Shown one piece after another: positions 7,711-15,453 of a stretch of 64,000 bases of DNA. The stretch's first letter is position 1; each line of letters begins with the position of its first letter. The notes below the pieces were generated by a model that saw only the letters and a program-made list of their open reading frames with translations, searched no databases and was not told where the DNA came from. The stretch lies in sequence record OR886155.1; one strand, given 5' to 3'. This DNA is from Escherichia phage FH3. Position numbers and translations under genes: made by a program.

Positions 7711-9484
7711 CTTTCAATTGTAAGGGCGCTATTGCCCCGCTCTCTATGAGCTTGTTTAAGTCACTATTAACTTATCTCTAACCACTCACTTTTTAAGTAG
7801 TTACAGGTAAGTGAGGCGGTCTTATCAGGAGTTAACCTTGCCGCCTCCTTATCCGTGATGTTTCATCTGGTATCTTTAATTAGTCGCTATAAACGAAGCC
7901 GACCTGATAGCGATGATCAATCATCACAATAAGGCTATGCGTCCGACTCTATTTAATTACATTGCTGTAACCGTCGGCAATATCGTTTACTTTGTTTTCG
8001 CTCCCGCTTATCCTTTGTGCCAACTCCTGATCGCTAACCATCGCCCACTACGGGAGGCTATTGCGAAAAGGTCATTGACCGCCTAATATTCCGGCGTTTT
8101 ATATCTTTCAGCAGGTTTACTACATAAACCGACTATGTACTTTCGTCATAAGACGAATATCAAGCCGTTCACATCGTAAACGTTCGCATTAAACCTTATT
8201 GTTAAATAGCAATTTGCCACTTTTTAACCACTCCCCGCCGCCCTCAATTGGGCGTTAATTCTTCGGACTTGCCTACCCTGATTAACTTCTTTCACTGTAG
8301 CACCTTGTTAGCGATGACCGCCGCTACCCTTAACCGTGGGCGATTAGCTTAAGCCGTTGCGTGTACTCAATGAATCCGTTTATCAGTGGTGACTTTTCCA
8401 GTAAGGGAATGTAAGACTGTTTACCCTGATATTTTAGGGAGTCTTACACCGTTTTATCTGGTATGCTTTCCGATGGTTATTATCATCAAGCATATTCAAC
8501 CGATATATGGGAATGTTTAAATTATTAAAGAGCGGTAAATCTATCAGTGTGCTTTCTCACACTATGCAACTGTTAGCCGTTGTTACGCTTTTCACTGAAG
8601 CGATGATTTGCTTAGTGAGTGCTCATTATGAATCATGTTGTTTTCGCTGTCAACCGCTTTTTAATCTTTTTTCGTCGTTCCCGCTATTGGGAGGATATAT
8701 CAATCAGCTTTATTTGATTGAAGATTAAGCGGTGATGCTTAACTTATGATTCATATTGTTAAAGAGCGTTAGCCTTTTAGAGTGTCTGCTAATCACTGTC
8801 ACATTTAAGGCTTACTTATTCATTAACGGGCCGCCTACACCCGAACTACTCGCTGCACTATGTGCCACTTTTCCCGCGATACGTTGATTTGGGAACTTGT
8901 TAGCGGTGTATCTGCTAACTTGTGGTTAGTATGGACTACTTTAACCACGTTTGCAACTCTTTTTATCATCTTCTTTTAATTCCTTTCCCTTATCTCGCGT
9001 GAATCTATGCGAAAGGGCAAGATGATAAGTTTTTAAAGAGCGGGATTTTTTAAGTCATCGCTGACTATGCTCACTATATATCAGGCTGTTTTCGGTGTCA
9101 ATACTCTTTTTGAGAATATTTTCACTTTCTAACCTGATTTTTAAAGAGCGGGGCAATTTCTTGCCTTGTATGTTTTACATCGTACCCGATGAAATGAAGT
9201 ATACGCTAATCAGATGAGGTTGCAATAGGGTAAAGCAAATTATTTTAAACTTTTTCACTATAGGAAGGTAAAAGAGCAGGCGCACGCGATACATCATAGA
9301 AAACGGCTTGTAAAGCGATATTTAGCGGCCTAAAACGCATCACAACGAGCTAAAAGGGAGTAAGGCATACACTCACCTCATAAAAGAGAAAAGCCTCACT
9401 AGGAGGCTTACAGGAAGGATTAGAGAATCAGATAGATTATGACCATAGGCATGACTACGGCACAATACAGAAGAAAGATTAAGC
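7711..9484. repeat. 1.8 kb ORF-free region with reiterated motifs
   Basis: TTAAAGAGCG at 8525, 8759, 9033 and 9141; two hairpin + CCGT..TGTTT(C/T)ATCTGGTAT modules near 7820-7885 and 8400-8478; CACTATAGG at 9256-9264. Confidence 0.45.
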
Positions 9485-9850
9485 CTATGGATTTACACAT
9501 TGACCGTTACCGGATGCCATTTCATTCATAGACTCATCAAAGAGCGTCAACGATGAGCGCATCAAGTGATCGACCGTAATTTGCTTACCAGTGGTTTCAT
9601 TTACCAGTTGAATAGTTTTATCATATGATTGTACATGATCGAAATCATTTACATGTAAAATAATAACTTTAGGTGACTTTTTACCAGTGTCATAGTTTTC
9701 TACAATATAGGTGCACTGTAAACCGTCAACCGTAGCAGGGGAGAACGTTGCAGCCTTAACGCTACCCATAGCTGACAGCAGGACACCTAACAGGAGAACG
9801 ACAAGGAAGAAGCCTACAATCGTTTTAACGACGAATTTAATAAACCACAT
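9485..9850 (-). CDS. membrane-anchored or secreted protein
   Basis: N-terminal hydrophobic stretch FVVKTIVGFFLVVLLLGVLLSAMG. Confidence 0.4.
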   Translation of the reverse strand: MWFIKFVVKTIVGFFLVVLLLGVLLSAMGSVKAATFSPATVDGLQCTYIVENYDTGKKSPKVIILHVNDFDHVQSYDKTIQLVNETTGKQITVDHLMRSSLTLFDESMNEMASGNGQCVNP

Positions 9851-10038
9851 AGCAATTAACCTTTAATATTGAGATTAAGCAAATCGAGAGCGGCAACAAT
9901 CAGTAAATAGTTTAAAGAAATGAAGCCCACGACAAACAAAAACAAAAACAGCACAACAGACCTTAAAGAACGTAAGAATAAAGCATGTCAGCGACGAATA
10001 ACGCCACTGTAACAACGAACAAGCAACGCCAAAAATAA

Positions 10039-10311
10039 TCATTCTTCTTCATTGCTACCCTCGCCAAAAAATGCTACGCTGATTTGTTCCACTTCTTCCA
10101 GCGACAGAAGAATCCCACGTTGGGCTAGATACTTCCCAACAGTTAGATAATCTTGCACCAAGCAGACAATAGGAAAGCGTATGTTTTGTATCTCACCTTT
10201 AGAAAGAAAAGACAAATAACCAACGTCGGTTGACTCATCAAAGGACAATGTAACGCCACCGTAATTATGCGTGTCAATTAATGCAATAGTTTCATTTCCC
10301 ATCAGTATCAC
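10039..10311 (-). CDS. small protein, paralog trio member C
   Basis: THNYGG motif shared with ORF 10318-10476. Confidence 0.35.
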   Translation of the reverse strand: MILMGNETIALIDTHNYGGVTLSFDESTDVGYLSFLSKGEIQNIRFPIVCLVQDYLTVGKYLAQRGILLSLEEVEQISVAFFGEGSNEEE

Positions 10312-10317
10312 CCTTAA

Positions 10318-10476
10318 TTAGCCCATGATTGAGCAGGTTAGCCAGCGACAAGCCACCGTCTTAATATTATCGCCGACAATAAACAAGATTAGACACTTGT
10401 CAGAGTCATCAGTATATGAGAAATCAATCCCACCATAATTGTGAGTCGGAATAGTAAAGCTATGCTCTTTAGTCAT
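10318..10476 (-). pseudogene. small ORF, paralog trio member B, possibly frameshifted
   Basis: My translation MTKEHSFTIPTHNYGGIDFSY... (52 aa); the conserved C-terminal GGLSLANLL motif is encoded out of frame. Confidence 0.3.
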
Positions 10477-10720
10477 GTATCAATCTTTCACTTAACAGGT
10501 TAGCCAGTGACAAATCACCTTTGATATAGATGTCACGAAAATCAGCACGGGTAATTTCAAGGCCAGCAAATTTCAACCATTTTTTAGCTGACTGAAAATC
10601 CATTTTGCAAAAAGTGATAATAGGCACGATAAGCTGACCATCAAGCGTATTAAACATGATAGCAGTATCGCCAACAAAACAAGAAAAGTCGTTAGATAAT
10701 TCAACTTCTTTAATAGCCAT
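10469..10720 (-). CDS. small protein, paralog trio member A
   Basis: C-terminus GDLSLANLLSERLIHD; about 30 nt of its 3' end recurs at 10326-10355. Confidence 0.35.
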   Translation of the reverse strand: MAIKEVELSNDFSCFVGDTAIMFNTLDGQLIVPIITFCKMDFQSAKKWLKFAGLEITRADFRDIYIKGDLSLANLLSERLIHD

Positions 10721-10756
10721 TATTTATACTCCCAAAAGATTGGCAAATTAATTTAT

Positions 10757-11248
10757 TCACTTACTAGCCTTAATGCAGTTGGCTAAATTAACGTGAACAG
10801 TATAAACAGCGTTGTCAGCGTTATTGTAAACAGTTGTGGCGATCATCGACTCATTAACCGGACCATAACTCACAAGATTAGTAACGGCTTTAACGTCTTC
10901 ATAACGTTGTACAGTGCCAAATGTCACCATATCCATATCGTTATCGGTACGCTTAAGCACCAAATCACTGTTAGGCTGATTATCTAGCGTTTTAGATTGA
11001 AAGAGAACGCCATCATTAGTAACGTTGCTAAATTTCATCTTTAACACGATGGAAGTGCCATCACTATCAGCACCGTTACAAATCATCCAACCCTTATTGA
11101 TGGAACTAGAGAAGACACTAGCCGCATCAGTTGCAGGAGTAGGACTAGCGATAGCCTTATCAGAAAGAGATGTGACCAGTGCACTAACACCAATCGCTGC
11201 AACTAGTGCATAACTTGCCAGATTAACTACCTGCATTGCTTTAGCCAT
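10757..11248 (-). CDS. secreted protein with signal peptide
   Basis: N-terminus MQVVNLASYALVAAIGVSALVTSLS... typical cleavable signal peptide. Confidence 0.4.
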   Translation of the reverse strand: MAKAMQVVNLASYALVAAIGVSALVTSLSDKAIASPTPATDAASVFSSSINKGWMICNGADSDGTSIVLKMKFSNVTNDGVLFQSKTLDNQPNSDLVLKRTDNDMDMVTFGTVQRYEDVKAVTNLVSYGPVNESMIATTVYNNADNAVYTVHVNLANCIKASK

Positions 11249-12015
11249 TTCGTTACTCCTTAGATAGATTCAGTCAACTGTCATCAACTATATATTAAAG
11301 GAAAAGACTGTCAACCATCTATTTTCTAACTTTCTTGCATCCTACTGAAAACTAAAGGAATTTAATTTACTAAACTTTCCATACTCAGAGAATCAGCTTA
11401 CTTCTTATTGTTACTTTATAACACTACGGGTAACAGACCAACAGACCAGGACAAACGGGGATACAACAACCGCAGGACAGACCACGGGGAAACACAGCCA
11501 GATAGTGCGGTAGTAATATACCACTTAAATAATTGTATAACTCAAACATCAAAGACGTTCGCTACGCTCACAAAGGCACGCTGAAAAAGAAAGTAATAAA
11601 AGAAACAATTAAAAGAAATACAATCATCCACTTAATTAATACATACATCATTATTGCACTCATAATCATTACTATTGAAACTATTTACACTCAAACTATG
11701 GGGGATGGAACGGTAACAATACGGTATTATTAGACCTGTTATGATTGTGCCTGTACAGTGCTAGCCTTTCTCTCACTCTTTAAAGGGGTACTAAATAAAC
11801 GGGTAGGTAATGTATTGGGTAGTATACACGGGGGAATAATTACGGGGAGTAGGCACGGGGAAAGGTGGAACATGTAAAGGGAAGGTAAAGGCATTGCCAA
11901 TAACCCTTTTTTAAATGAGGACTCCCCCTTTTTAGGAAACGCGCGGGAAGCGGCTAGCCCCACTCGGTCAAATCAGAATTTTAAACTCTTATATATAAGC
12001 TTAAGAGAGGACTTA
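11249..12015. promoter_or_regulatory. divergent intergenic control region
   Basis: Lies between the minus-strand early block and plus-strand genes; ACGGGG-type motifs clustered at 11426-11490 and 11798-11862; AT-rich tract 11580-11740. Confidence 0.35.
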
Positions 12016-12177
12016 ATGAATCTAATTAAAGTATTTAGACGGATGAAGTGTAAGCACAATTACTATCTTCTTCGTAAAGCTTACGGGGATGAAAGAATAC
12101 ATGGTTTGTATCTATCAACATGGAAGTGTAAGGAATGTGGTAAGTTGAGATTCAGTACGTGGGTGGATAAGCCTTAA
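12016..12177 (+). CDS. small Zn-ribbon-like protein (53 aa, below ORF-track cutoff)
   Basis: My translation MNLIKVFRRMKCKHNYY...WKCKECGKLRF. Confidence 0.3.
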   Translation: MNLIKVFRRMKCKHNYYLLRKAYGDERIHGLYLSTWKCKECGKLRFSTWVDKP

Positions 12178-12391
12178 CGTGACATGGCCTTTATGGGGGT
12201 GCCTTAACATGAAGTCCCCTTTATGTCTTAACTTTATCAGAGGGATTTATGACTGAAGATGAATATGGTAGCTTCTCTGAAGAAGACTACGAAAATGAAT
12301 ACAGGTATGCTCGCGGGTGTCAATGTGAGGGTGCCTTTACGGGTAGGTCTTATGATGTGCCCTTTATACTCTTATTCAGAGGAGAAGAATT

Positions 12392-12658
12392 ATGAATTTA
12401 GTATTAGACTTTTTATCAGAGTTGATTCCACGGTTCAGAACGGAGAAATGTGCCTTCATTAAAGAATCCTCTGATAAGTATGGAGATGGTGAGATGATGG
12501 AACTCACTTGCATTGGTCGTCTGGTTGACTTAGGTGATGAAACAGATTTCGATGTTACGATGGATGTTAGCAGTTTAGGTTGGTTATTCTTCAGAGCATT
12601 CGTATCGTACAAATATGAAACATTTAAAGATTACAGCAAGGGAGGGACAGATGAATAA
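12392..12658 (+). CDS. hypothetical acidic protein
   Basis: ORF track. Confidence 0.35.
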   Translation: MNLVLDFLSELIPRFRTEKCAFIKESSDKYGDGEMMELTCIGRLVDLGDETDFDVTMDVSSLGWLFFRAFVSYKYETFKDYSKGGTDE

Positions 12659-13220
12659 TTTAATCAAAGCGATGGACCTTAACGAGTATAATTCACAGCT
12701 GTGTCGCTCTGGCTGTAGCTTACAACGTTTAGAAACTATGGGAAATGTTTCAGGATTGGCTGTACAAGATTTATATAGTGGAAGTATTCTTAAACCAAAT
12801 ATTACGGAGAACAAAAACATGTTAGATTTGATTCATACTACTCGCCCTAACTCTAAAACTAAATCAGCACCATCTACTCTGGAAGTAGTTGAGTATGAGT
12901 CTACTAAACATGATCACCTCCCTGACTATGCTCGTGCAATGATTGAGATGATTGAAGAAGCTGAATATGAAATGCTCCATGATTACATTACCTCCAAAGA
13001 TGAATGGCATCGTGATGTTCGAATCGAAGAAGATGGTACAGAAATAATTACGTGGATTCATAAGAGTGAGCTAGTAGACGACGCACTGCGAGACTACGAA
13101 AAATTTTTGGTCGACGGCTCTATTCTTTTAGAGGAAGAGAAGGGTGTAGAACTTCCGTGGGAAGGTGAGACGATTGCTCTAGGTAAGATGTTTAACCTGT
13201 CCGTTGGTGATTGTAAGTAA
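12615..13220 (+). CDS. hypothetical protein
   Basis: ORF track, 201 aa, followed by a terminator hairpin. Confidence 0.4.
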   Translation: MKHLKITAREGQMNNLIKAMDLNEYNSQLCRSGCSLQRLETMGNVSGLAVQDLYSGSILKPNITENKNMLDLIHTTRPNSKTKSAPSTLEVVEYESTKHDHLPDYARAMIEMIEEAEYEMLHDYITSKDEWHRDVRIEEDGTEIITWIHKSELVDDALRDYEKFLVDGSILLEEEKGVELPWEGETIALGKMFNLSVGDCK

Positions 13221-13225
13221 TATTT

Positions 13226-13248
13226 GCCTCCATTGGGAGGCTTTTTGT
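13226..13248 (+). terminator. rho-independent terminator
   Basis: GCCTCC-ATTG-GGAGGC followed by TTTTT. Confidence 0.45.
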
Positions 13249-13276
13249 GTTGTTGATAATGTAGAAGGAGTATAAA

Positions 13277-13750
13277 ATGTTTGGAGAAAACGGAGAACTC
13301 ACGCCTGCACAGGTAGCTGAGATTACAGGAAGATTACCCGGAGTAACGGAAGAACTTGAAGGCCGTGGTATGAACCCAAGCAATGGGAAGTTTCAAAAGG
13401 GAAATAAATTCGGACGACCCAGAGGTAGTAGAGGTAAACTGACACAATTAATGTTGGACCGTGTTGCTGCAAGTCATTTGTCTCCTGATGAAGTGTTAAT
13501 TCAAATTTACGAAGATCCTAATATTCCACCTGATCTTAGATTCAAGGCTGCATCAAAAGTTGCAGATCTGGTATATCCTAAGGCGGCCTCTGTTGAAGTT
13601 AAGATTGAGGAAGAGAATGTAATCAACGAAGAATCATTGAATGCACAAATCAAGGACTTCTTGACTGGAGCACTTGGTATCGACGTTATGCCTCCAGAAG
13701 AAGACAACTCTGAGGACGCTGAAAAGGGGGAGGAAGCGGACGAGAGTTAA
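13277..13750 (+). CDS. putative terminase small subunit
   Basis: Directly upstream of the large terminase; basic GRPRGSRG stretch and acidic C-terminus; assignment is positional. Confidence 0.4.
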   Translation: MFGENGELTPAQVAEITGRLPGVTEELEGRGMNPSNGKFQKGNKFGRPRGSRGKLTQLMLDRVAASHLSPDEVLIQIYEDPNIPPDLRFKAASKVADLVYPKAASVEVKIEEENVINEESLNAQIKDFLTGALGIDVMPPEEDNSEDAEKGEEADES

Positions 13751-13911
13751 GTAAAGGAAACAGGGAGCTGTCGAAGAACATCTGATTAGCAATCTGAGGA
13801 TTGTTATAGTTTTATTGCCACGATGTTCTTTTACAGTGTACCCTTGTAGTGGAGAGGGGAGGTTCTTTGACGAAGGGACTTTCCCTTTTCTATTTTTAAA
13901 CTGGAGGAAGT

Positions 13912-15453
13912 ATGTCATTAGATAAACAAATTTATGAAGCTCTAACTGGTAACAACCTTAGTGTAGAGGAAAAGAAAGCACTATTGAATATGTTGAAAGA
14001 GCGTGACCAATGGAGGAAGTATAATAAGATTTTGTCTTTCAAGGCGTATGACTTCCAAAAGAAATTTTATGCAGCAGGATTGAAGCATCGCTTTAGATTC
14101 TTGTGTGCAGCGAACCGTGTTGGTAAATCTTACAGCGAGGCATATGAGTTTGCTTGTCATGTCACAGGTCGCTACCCAACTTGGTGGACAGGATATAAAT
14201 TTAAAAGACCTATCTTAGCATGGGCAGTTGGTATTACAGGGGATTCCACAAGGAAAGTATTGCAAAAGGAATTGTTTGGTACACCTATCGGAAAGGATAC
14301 AAACTTATTGGGGACAGGTGTCATTCCTCGTGATGCTATCGTCATTGACACGATAGAACGAGATGGTAACAAACTTCAAATCGTACAAATTAAACATCAA
14401 AATGAGAGAGGAGAATTTGACGGTTTAAGTACATTAGAATTCCGTTCAACCCAACAGGGTGAACACACATTGATGGGTGCAACAGTTGACTACATTTGGT
14501 TAGACGAAGAAGATCCATACGAGTCTATGGCTATATTCGCACAGTGCGTCACACGTACACTCACAACTAAAGGTCTAGTTACAATTACAGCTACACCAGA
14601 GAACGGTTTAACTGAACTGGTAGATAAATTTATGAAAGGTGAAGGGGATGAGAACACAGGTTCTCTATATTTCCAGAATGCTTCTTGGTGGGATGCTCAT
14701 GCAGACCTAGGTGGACATATCACTGACCAAGATATAAAAGATATGACTGAAGGTATTCCAGCGTGGCAGTTAGAGATGCGTTCGAAAGGTATGCCATTGT
14801 TAGGAAGTGGTTTGATATATGATGTATCGGATGACACAATTAAATGTGAACCATTCGAAATTCCTGATACGTGGAAACGTGTCTGTGCAATTGATATTGG
14901 TATTGATCACCCAACTGCTGCTGTTTGGACAGCTTACGATGCAAACACGGATACTATCTATGTTTACGACTCATATAAAGAAGGTGGCTTTACTCCAGTG
15001 TATCATGCTCCAGCTATTAATGGTCGTGGTCAGTGGATTCCTGTCATCCTACCGCACGATGCGGACAATATTGAGAAAGGTAGTGGCTCATCTGTTGCTC
15101 AATTCTATAAGAATGCAGGGGTTAACGTACAGAGTGAGACCTTCTACAACAAAATTGGAATGGATGGTAAAAAGAACTTCTTTGTAGAACCGGGAATCAC
15201 AGATATCCGAGAAAGAATGATGAGTGGACGCTTTAAAATCTTTAACACAGCCGCTAACGCTAAGCTATTCGAAGAGAAAGCTAGATATCACCGTAAGGTT
15301 GGTAAGATTATTAAAGAACATGATGACTTAATGGATGCAATGCGCTATTCAGCGTGCTCTGTTACACATCGTGGTCGCTCTAAGCATGACGTTAGCTACG
15401 GAAGTGCTTCTCTGTATGAGGCAAACGTAAGCAGATGGAATCAGAGTTACTAA
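13912..15453 (+). CDS. terL: terminase large subunit
   Basis: 513 aa; Walker-A-like RVGKS, IWLDEEDP Walker B, C-terminal nuclease-like region; sits just upstream of portal. Confidence 0.85.
   Translation: MSLDKQIYEALTGNNLSVEEKKALLNMLKERDQWRKYNKILSFKAYDFQKKFYAAGLKHRFRFLCAANRVGKSYSEAYEFACHVTGRYPTWWTGYKFKRPILAWAVGITGDSTRKVLQKELFGTPIGKDTNLLGTGVIPRDAIVIDTIERDGNKLQIVQIKHQNERGEFDGLSTLEFRSTQQGEHTLMGATVDYIWLDEEDPYESMAIFAQCVTRTLTTKGLVTITATPENGLTELVDKFMKGEGDENTGSLYFQNASWWDAHADLGGHITDQDIKDMTEGIPAWQLEMRSKGMPLLGSGLIYDVSDDTIKCEPFEIPDTWKRVCAIDIGIDHPTAAVWTAYDANTDTIYVYDSYKEGGFTPVYHAPAINGRGQWIPVILPHDADNIEKGSGSSVAQFYKNAGVNVQSETFYNKIGMDGKKNFFVEPGITDIRERMMSGRFKIFNTAANAKLFEEKARYHRKVGKIIKEHDDLMDAMRYSACSVTHRGRSKHDVSYGSASLYEANVSRWNQSY

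Follow-up and report, generated by a model that had tools for sequence, protein, structure and literature searches.

The DNA analyzed here is a stretch of 64,000 nucleotides from Escherichia phage FH3 (sequence record OR886155.1), called the window below; all coordinates refer to it. Between the start codon of a leftward open reading frame (ORF) at 11248 and the first rightward ORF at 12016 there is a gap without genes. In a preliminary description, the gap was presented as a divergent control region, in which two clusters of ACGGGG motifs flank an AT-rich tract and are followed by CCTTTAY repeats. The clusters, the tract, and the CCTTTAY copies are all found where that description placed them, and the gene-free gap does separate opposed directions of transcription. 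However, comparison with related genomes leaves little doubt that the region is the concatemer junction, that is, the joined physical ends, of a Kuravirus genome carrying T7-like arrays. The parts of this junction, in all likelihood, are the unique DNA of the right end (11249–11762), the direct terminal repeat (DTR, 11763–11955), and then the unique DNA of the left end. The features of the junction are the following:

11426–11490, plus strand: cluster 1, three copies of AYGGGKA (11426 ACGGGTA, 11455 ACGGGGA, and 11484 ACGGGGA) at 29-bp spacing
11580–11740, no strand: AT-rich tract, with an indel-rich purine run (about 11583–11620) followed by a nearly invariant block (about 11627–11703) in an alignment of 12 kuraviruses
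11760–11765, no strand: GCT^AGC palindrome at the left DTR boundary, with the presumed cut between 11762 and 11763, after the left end of phiEco32
11763–11955, plus strand: 193-bp DTR, by homology with phiEco32 and YF01, in single copy
11799–11861, plus strand: cluster 2, a five-unit array in the DTR with a 13–16-bp period (about 14), its first copy 36 bp from the left boundary
11886–11946, no strand: most conserved part of the DTR in the alignment, holding CCCTTTTTTA-N10-CCCTTTTTA (11905–11934) around GAGGACTCCCCC
11953–11958, no strand: GCT^AGC within GGCTAGCC at the right DTR boundary, with the presumed cut between 11955 and 11956, after the right end of phiEco32

Genome Ends and the Direct Terminal Repeat

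The 1.7 kb around the region matched 97 phage records, all of them Escherichia or Shigella podophages of about 76–78 kb, with phage 1-6af as the best match (96.7% identity). The records inspected are classed as Kuravirus, subfamily Gordonclarkvirinae (phiEco32-like phages). In SGF2, the rightward neighbors are labeled as homologues of phi32_4 and NJ01_015 and are followed by the large terminase and the portal, and the leftward neighbor is labeled as a homologue of the last ECBP2 gene. The gap thus falls between the end and the beginning of the phiEco32 gene map. In the window itself, the rightward ORFs have homologues in phi32_1, 4, 5, 6, and 7, and the leftward ORF in the last gene of the relatives.

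The record of phiEco32 is linear. Its left end opens with AGCCTTTCTCTCAC / AGCCTTTC, and its first 193 bp recur at the right end (1–193 = 77362–77554), which terminates in ...GCGGCT. Up to 11762, the sequence of the window runs collinear with the right end of phiEco32, and from 11956 onwards with its left end, while the 193 positions in between (11763–11955) align end to end with the phiEco32 terminal repeat, with 19 differences. The same segment is identical to the repeat of phage 1-6af, and the annotated DTR of YF01 maps onto it. No 25-mer of 11763–11955 recurs within the window. The single copy points to a permuted assembly with a collapsed repeat, which has the layout of a junction in the replicative concatemer. 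The G-rich sites that had been described as flanking an AT-rich segment are thus, in reality, an array of the right end, an AT-rich spacer, and a DTR with an array of its own, since the second cluster falls inside the repeat.

The terminal repeat is already known. Repeats of 193 bp were found experimentally in phiEco32 and were seen in nanopore reads of YF01, DTRs of 192–193 bp have been reported by similarity for 30 kuraviruses, and a conserved stretch was noted at DTR positions of about 130–170 (PMC9965538). In SU10, a steep drop in reads at the ends of the repeat points to blunt ends (PMC4281155). DTRs of 193 bp, blunt ends, and an assumed T7-like packaging of concatemers are reported in the kuravirus literature (PMC9965538, PMC4281155, PMC7881722). 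The DTRs of phiEco32, SU10, Paul, and YF01 are homologous to the one described here, with the same 193 bp, equal boundaries, and a common core, and show no structural difference from it. On the other hand, neither AYGGGKA arrays nor boundaries at GCT^AGC are mentioned in the kuravirus literature covered (including PMC4281155 and PMC9965538, the original phiEco32 descriptions aside).

The AYGGGKA Arrays

ACGGGG is found on the plus strand at 11455, 11484, 11828, 11842, 11855, and 12083, which are 6 of its 11 occurrences in 64 kb. Together with the ACGGGT variants at 11426, 11799, and 12339, these copies outline a fuller motif, A-Y-G-G-G-K-A. Eight plus-strand copies of AYGGGKA are located within 1 kb and none on the minus strand, whereas the largest count in any 1 kb of 200 dinucleotide-preserving shuffles is three. 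On the contrary, the total of 11 ACGGGG copies in the window (8.8 expected) shows no overall enrichment. The motif therefore stands out from the background by its clustering and its strand bias and not by its total number.

Cluster 1 is placed in the unique DNA of the right end, 279–337 bp left of the DTR, with spacings of 29 and 29 bp, and is found in most of the related loci examined. Its copies are interleaved with CAGACCA (11434, 11442, and 11478), whose clustering does not exceed that of the shuffles. An avoidance of type III restriction sites, based on the orientation of AGACC, was considered and rejected (42 vs. 49 genome-wide, with no strand bias). Cluster 2 consists of ACGGGTA (11799), a degenerate TTGGGTA (11815), ACGGGGG(A) (11828), and ACGGGGA (11842 and 11855), spaced by 16, 13, 14, and 13 bp. 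The further copy at 12083 (ACGGGGA) lies in frame in the first rightward ORF (ORF1), where it encodes Tyr-Gly-Asp. It is missing in MLP3 and TH34, whose ORF1 protein differs, and is probably a coding coincidence.

In 19 related loci, all ACGGG(G/T) copies are on one strand and none is on the minus strand, although these loci are related and do not amount to 19 independent observations. Across 12 kuraviruses having the common architecture, variable columns of the DTR are 1 out of 28 within the motifs and 67 out of 165 elsewhere (Fisher's test, P = 6e-5). Within 11790–11880, the respective values are 1 out of 28 and 30 out of 63 (P = 2e-5). An alignment-based permutation test that included very divergent lineages gave P of about 0.06, a value that is unreliable since repeat copies misalign, and Fisher's test was used instead. 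Judged from these alignments, purifying selection acts more strongly on the motifs than on their spacers.

The architecture of the arrays, as far as the compared genomes tell, survives sequence turnover across lineages. For instance, MLP3 and TH34 have ATGGGTA(R) at most array positions of both clusters with similar spacing, in 4E8 and EP335 (68–76% identity over the region) cluster 1 is made up of four copies and the DTR array of six, and Bas93 favors CACGGGA. The location of the arrays by the genome ends and their strand specificity are established by the same comparison. A binding array of reiterated G-rich sites, as the preliminary description had proposed, is a reasonable reading of motifs that are real, more conserved than their spacers, and kept in their layout among relatives, although their function is deduced from this pattern.

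In Salmonella phage 7-11, a distant and unalignable relative, the junction is a gene-free region of about 2.8 kb with one-strand repeats of other kinds (TCAGTGTA in four copies and YGTRTGGATA-like in four copies) and without AYGGGKA arrays; the ends are not defined in the 7-11 record. RNA folding of the three clusters (cluster 3 is given below) and of the DTR core showed no structure beyond that of shuffles (z from -0.5 to +1.2). No match to Rfam was found in 9000–15000 at E <= 1, and a tRNA scan found none.

The Conserved Core and the Boundary Palindromes

An internal repeat of the form CCCTTTTTTA-N10-CCCTTTTT(T)A is common to the DTR of the window and those of the relatives. In SU10 it was described as CCCTTTTTTA-N10-CCCTTTTTTA, 21 nt from the repeat end (PMC4281155), and it corresponds to 11905–11934 of the window. 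A 17-mer of the core is also present in IMG/VR contigs of 88–90 kb. Two of these contigs (90 and 88 kb) have in common with kuraviruses the core TGAGGACTCCCCCTTTT and an upstream context, TTTAAAGGGG(T/C)AC...ACGTGGGG / ACGGGTA. The core thus seems to be conserved beyond the genus. Of the other 17-mer matches in IMG/VR outside kuraviruses, the five inspected in context, with three further ones left out, look like chance.

Both presumed DTR boundaries coincide with the exact center of a GCTAGC palindrome, and the two palindromes are 193 bp apart. GCTAGC has five occurrences in the window. In relatives, the form YT^RGC is found at both boundaries; 4E8 and EP335, for example, have GCT^GGCC, and many right boundaries read CCT^AGCC. 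CTAGCC alone has 16 matches in the window. This is an indication that the sequence of the cut cannot provide specificity by itself and that further elements are needed.

Genes and Signals on Both Sides of the Junction

The neighboring features are listed from left to right:

10757–11248, minus strand: first leftward ORF (right end, early), 163 aa, PHROG 21410 and C-terminal part of PHROG 36409
11314–11287, minus strand: leftward sigma-70 early promoter, TTGACA-16 nt-TATAGT, 11 of 12 consensus positions in a promoter scan
11956–12015, plus strand: conserved left-end leader, CCCCACTCGGTCAAATCAGAATTTTAAAC...TCTTATATATAAG, ahead of ORF1 in the alignment
12016–12177, plus strand: ORF1, 53 aa, PHROG 7696 (function unknown), with a C-x-H...C-x2-C pattern
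12171–12245 and 12317–12390, plus strand: cluster 3, two paralogous modules of about 70 nt from repeat analysis, with GCCTTWA / CCTTTAY units about 14–16 nt apart
13257–13265, plus strand: TAATGTAGA, a promoter element of the phage sigma factor (gp36) with one mismatch, 12 bp before the start of the putative small terminase
13277–13750, plus strand: putative small terminase (homologue of phi32_6), 157 aa, directly upstream of the large terminase
13912–15453, plus strand: large terminase subunit (homologue of phi32_7), 513 aa, annotated at a like position in phiEco32, SGF2, and 4E8

The first leftward ORF is homologous in position to phi32_128 and ECBP2_0120. It has 163 aa here and in 1-6af, DE5, NJ01, and 4E8, and 290 aa in phiEco32, SGF2, EK5, YF01, and MLP3. 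Of the long family (PHROG 36409), only positions 129–290, at the C terminus, are matched by the short form. A small additional ORF (NJ01_011) is found in some phages. The early promoter, which drives the leftward early operon, is conserved across kuraviruses, is annotated in 4E8 and SU7, and is located about 650 bp inside the right end. It corresponds to the single sigma-70 promoter reported ahead of the last gene in SU10 (PMC4281155). On the plus strand, no sigma-70 site reaching 9 out of 12 consensus positions was found in the promoter scan between 11249 and 12016. With regard to a divergent control region, one strong leftward promoter is therefore present, whereas a rightward one at this threshold is not, and the region is a junction of genome ends.

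The GC content over 11500–11800 is 0.29–0.32, against 0.42 in the whole window. The block at 11627–11703, about 75 bp long, AT-rich, and nearly invariant (TCCACTTAATTAATACATACATCATTATTGCACTCATAATCATTAC...ACTATGGGG), has indel-rich flanks, and CCACTTAAWTAAT occurs also at 11521. On the minus strand, an extended -10-like element, TGGTATATT, is found at 11523–11515 in a block that is invariant in 12 out of 12 aligned kuraviruses. It has no -35 element and is annotated nowhere; if active, it would drive leftward transcription through cluster 1.

In NJ01, O18-011, MN05, and 4E8, CCCCACTCGGTCAAATCAGAATTTTAAAC and TCTTATATATAAG of the leader are split by an insertion of about 46 bp that re-creates ATTTTAAAC. 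The ORF1 product (MNLIKVFRRMKCKHNYY...WKCKECGK...) shows a zinc-ribbon-like pattern and, among kuraviruses, is represented by two or more allelic types (MNLIKVF... and MWKIKL...). Each module of cluster 3 closes with a ribosome-binding site and a start codon, and YGGGK follows two of the units (12193 and 12339). The four CCTTTAY copies of the preliminary description are present on the plus strand (12188, 12218, 12334, and 12361), but their number is unexceptional: CCTTTAY occurs 22 times in the window (17.9 expected), and GCCTTWA reaches 4 per kb, with up to 5 in shuffles. These repeats are a local duplication, in the form of two paralogous modules, and are not significantly enriched. Between the modules there is a dispensable ORF of 48 aa (12249–12395). 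The segment that carries it (12239–12330) is present in the window, phiEco32, 1-6af, EK5, and TH06 and is missing from SGF2, DE5, SR02, PE006, NJ01, O18-011, and MN05. The number of GCCTTWA units also varies among kuraviruses (seven in MLP3).

The phage-sigma consensus is tAATGTAtA, and a promoter has been mapped upstream of phiEco32 gene 6 (PMC8948821). A terminator-like hairpin (13226–13241) precedes TAATGTAGA. In a profile search against small terminases of the PDB, the putative small terminase (TerS) gave E = 0.1 with 6w7t and E = 0.25 with 7joq, whereas phmmer against the PDB found nothing. A similarity of the YF01 protein to the TerS of PaP3 has been reported from HHpred (PMC9965538). 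The identity of the putative TerS across all lineages is 91–100%, and lineages with ATGGGTA arrays are no exception.

Two names in public records and PHROG look like annotation carry-over, namely "terminase" for an ORF of 121 aa (9485–9850) and "ABC transporter" for an ORF of 201 aa (12615–13220). Neither ORF has Pfam support; the former shows only a sub-threshold YobH-like similarity.

Comparison With Known Packaging and Replication Signals

In T7, TerS recognizes PacB and the large terminase (TerL) cuts at PacC (PMC9860248). The T7 heptamer CCTAAAG has three copies in the 160-bp repeat (17, 41, and 60). Counting one-base variants, at least 11 copies with a 13-bp period are found just inside the left repeat (175–332). 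A few more stand immediately to the left of the right repeat, and the other strand has none. Dunn and Studier reportedly described these terminal short-repeat arrays in 1983 as SRL and SRR.

The junction of FH3 resembles T7 and T3 in having a short DTR (193 vs. 160 bp) and a heptamer on one strand with a 13–15-bp period, which in the concatemer occupies the repeat as well as its two flanks. The first promoters are also similarly placed, 500–750 bp from the entering end in T7 (A1–A3, left end) and about 650 bp here. On the contrary, the motifs differ (CCTAAAG vs. AYGGGKA), neither they nor the packaging proteins are homologous, and the two virus families are unrelated, so that the likeness is an analogy and not a membership. 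The array on the left-end side in kuraviruses (cluster 3) has another unit, GCCTTWA, and overlaps small ORFs. Furthermore, Kuravirus is without a phage RNA polymerase, and therefore a pause of T7 RNA polymerase at the junction cannot apply.

The cos site of lambda (cosQ-cosN-cosB), pacL/pacR of SPP1 (PMC7672466), and the hexamer repeats of P1 pac share with the junction a cut site of 2-fold symmetry. Common to them are also reiterated short sites within about 40–170 bp on the side of the terminase genes, more elements across the cut, and AT-rich or bendable DNA nearby. Lambda differs in its single staggered cut, whereas blunt ends and a duplication of 193 bp here would call for two cuts plus repair synthesis. 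No site of the IHF type was identified at the junction. With iteron origins such as lambda ori and plasmid oriV, the region has in common the clusters of direct repeats beside an AT-rich tract. It differs from them in the 7-bp units, the spacing of 14 or 29 bp out of phase, the location at a terminal repeat, and the lack of a recognized initiator among seven ORFs at or near the region.

A Proposed Role of the Arrays in Concatemer Cutting and Packaging

The reading that we favor, although we give it slightly less than an even chance, is that the AYGGGKA arrays are cis-acting signals for the maturation and packaging of concatemeric DNA. The combination of terminus identity and packaging arrays is the best explanation of the region as a whole, and the chances that it is right are about even. 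The arrays, with four to six copies of about 14-bp period in the DTR and three to four copies at about 29 bp some 300 bp to the left, would form an oriented docking platform of many sites for an oligomeric DNA-binding protein. The most plausible candidate would be a small terminase of the nonamer type, encoded 1.3 kb downstream, although we infer both the identity of this binder and the effect of its binding. Together with the invariant DTR core, the arrays would confine the nuclease of the large terminase to the two GCT^AGC palindromes. The model proposed for T7 would then apply: staggered nicks at these sites, on opposite strands, and fill-in synthesis that makes two copies of the repeat. 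Packaging would start at the left end, by the terminase genes, and the right end would be packaged last and enter the cell first. The latter is probable because the early genes sit at the right end. Cluster 2, 36–100 bp inside the left cut and on the side of the terminase genes, would have a cosB-like placement, given that cosB of lambda lies relative to cosN as cluster 2 does to the left cut. A platform of this kind would suit the known TerS rings, which carry nine helix-turn-helix motifs, and the TerS of SPP1, which makes multiple contacts flanking the cut (PMC7672466).

Several observations weigh against this reading. The invariant core (11886–11946) is, in the alignments, better conserved than the arrays and is kept in the 88–90-kb relatives, which have fewer G-motifs; the core rather than the arrays may be the real site of the terminase. 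Some 300 bp separate cluster 1 from the nearest cut, and spacings of 14.5 and 29 bp are out of helical phase. The arrays of T7, to our knowledge, have never been assigned a proven function. In FH3, the boundaries of the DTR are those suggested by homology only. The TerS assignment is weak (E = 0.1 with the TerS of PaP3 and no Pfam domain above the cut-off). A single-sequence AlphaFold model of the protein reached a pLDDT of 60, and Foldseek returned meaningless haemoglobins for it. Finally, a search for covariation between the motif variant (ACGGGGA vs. ATGGGTA) and TerS gave no signal either way, TerS being near-invariant.

Among the alternatives, an origin of replication would have AYGGGKA as iterons for a phage or host initiator and the AT-rich tract as the unwinding element. 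Such an arrangement is suggested by the two direct-repeat clusters on either side of a 160-bp tract (29–32% GC) that includes the nearly invariant 75-bp block, and the cumulative GC skew has its minimum at the region. However, this minimum is fully explained by the switch in the direction of transcription, the frequent indels in the purine-rich part of the tract speak for a weak constraint there, and the repeats are 7-mers at 14 or 29 bp, not helically phased iterons of 17–22 bp. Half of them lie inside the DTR and are hence duplicated at both genome ends. The CAGACCA copies of cluster 1 read as TGGTC on the other strand, which we take to be the recognition sequence of T7-type primases, but their clustering is within the range of shuffles. 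T7 does possess secondary origins (phiOL and phiOR) beside its terminal arrays; T7-type replisomes, though, use transcription-primed origins and not iterons, which counts against the proposal. No Pfam domain was found in seven ORFs (six flanking and one nearby), which belong to PHROG families of unknown function. Of the initiator array in the preliminary description, there remains an adjacent AT-rich element with nothing that specifically supports an origin, and we consider this explanation quite unlikely. A role in transcription, still less probable in our view, would make the arrays binding sites for a regulator of the leftward early promoter, of an unrecognised rightward promoter of ORF1-gp5, or of both. 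A strong and conserved sigma-70 promoter is indeed located 110 bp from cluster 1, the small rightward ORFs have no recognizable promoter in spite of their conserved leader, the minus-strand TGGTATATT (11523–11515) is invariant, and TAATGTATT in cluster 2 (11808) is a near match to the phage-sigma element. On the other hand, counted from the early promoter, cluster 1 spans about -120 to -200 and cluster 2 is at a distance of more than 480 bp, and neither a strict one-strand orientation nor a placement in the DTR is a feature of operators. The six mapped gp36 promoters of phiEco32 are upstream of genes 6, 13, 26, 40, 58, and 68, not here (PMC8948821). A conserved gp36 promoter in the DTR was rejected, as TAATGTATT at 11808 is polymorphic and missing from phiEco32 itself; in place of TAATGTAT, phiEco32 and half of the relatives have TAATGAAT. 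Regulator sites are conceivable for cluster 1 only.

Another function of the ends, or little sequence-specific function at all, is unlikely too. The variants of this explanation include tolerated tandem duplications in a noncoding leader that enters before transcription, a part in DNA ejection, and a part for the single-stranded 3′ tail of the DTR in concatemer formation. It would fit the tandem units of about 14 bp with degenerate units among good ones, the copy number and spacing that differ by lineage (four vs. six in the DTR), and the early promoter about 650 bp from the right end, comparable to A1–A3 of T7 at 500–750 bp from the left end. The G-rich strand would also be the one left single-stranded at the right end after replication. 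Against it, the positions of the motifs are far more conserved than the spacers, and they are on one strand in all lineages, which argues for a sequence-specific reader and not for neutral slippage. G-quadruplexes are a poor fit, with loops of 9–10 nt between the G-runs in cluster 2 and of more than 20 nt in cluster 1. A more specific version, in which the arrays act on single-stranded DNA, is highly improbable: the plus-strand 3′ tail of the right-end DTR would be recognized or folded, the tail protected, and the DTRs annealed into concatemers. If true, the single-strand arrays would be a dedicated signal for concatemerization apart from terminase recognition, which may explain the arrays of T7 too.

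Implications for Kuravirus Genomes

The finding is useful for annotation and phage engineering and is not surprising. In annotation, what looked like a divergent control region, in an assembly that is circularly permuted, is corrected to the physical ends of the genome. For the Kuravirus group, which includes candidates for phage therapy, the finding provides a testable map of the packaging region, composed of two GCT^AGC sites, an invariant core, and oriented heptamer arrays. Such a map is needed for transducing particles or for contained phages deficient in packaging, as has been done for T7. The convergence of an unrelated phage family on the T7 layout suggests a general role of the arrays in the maturation of genomes with DTRs.

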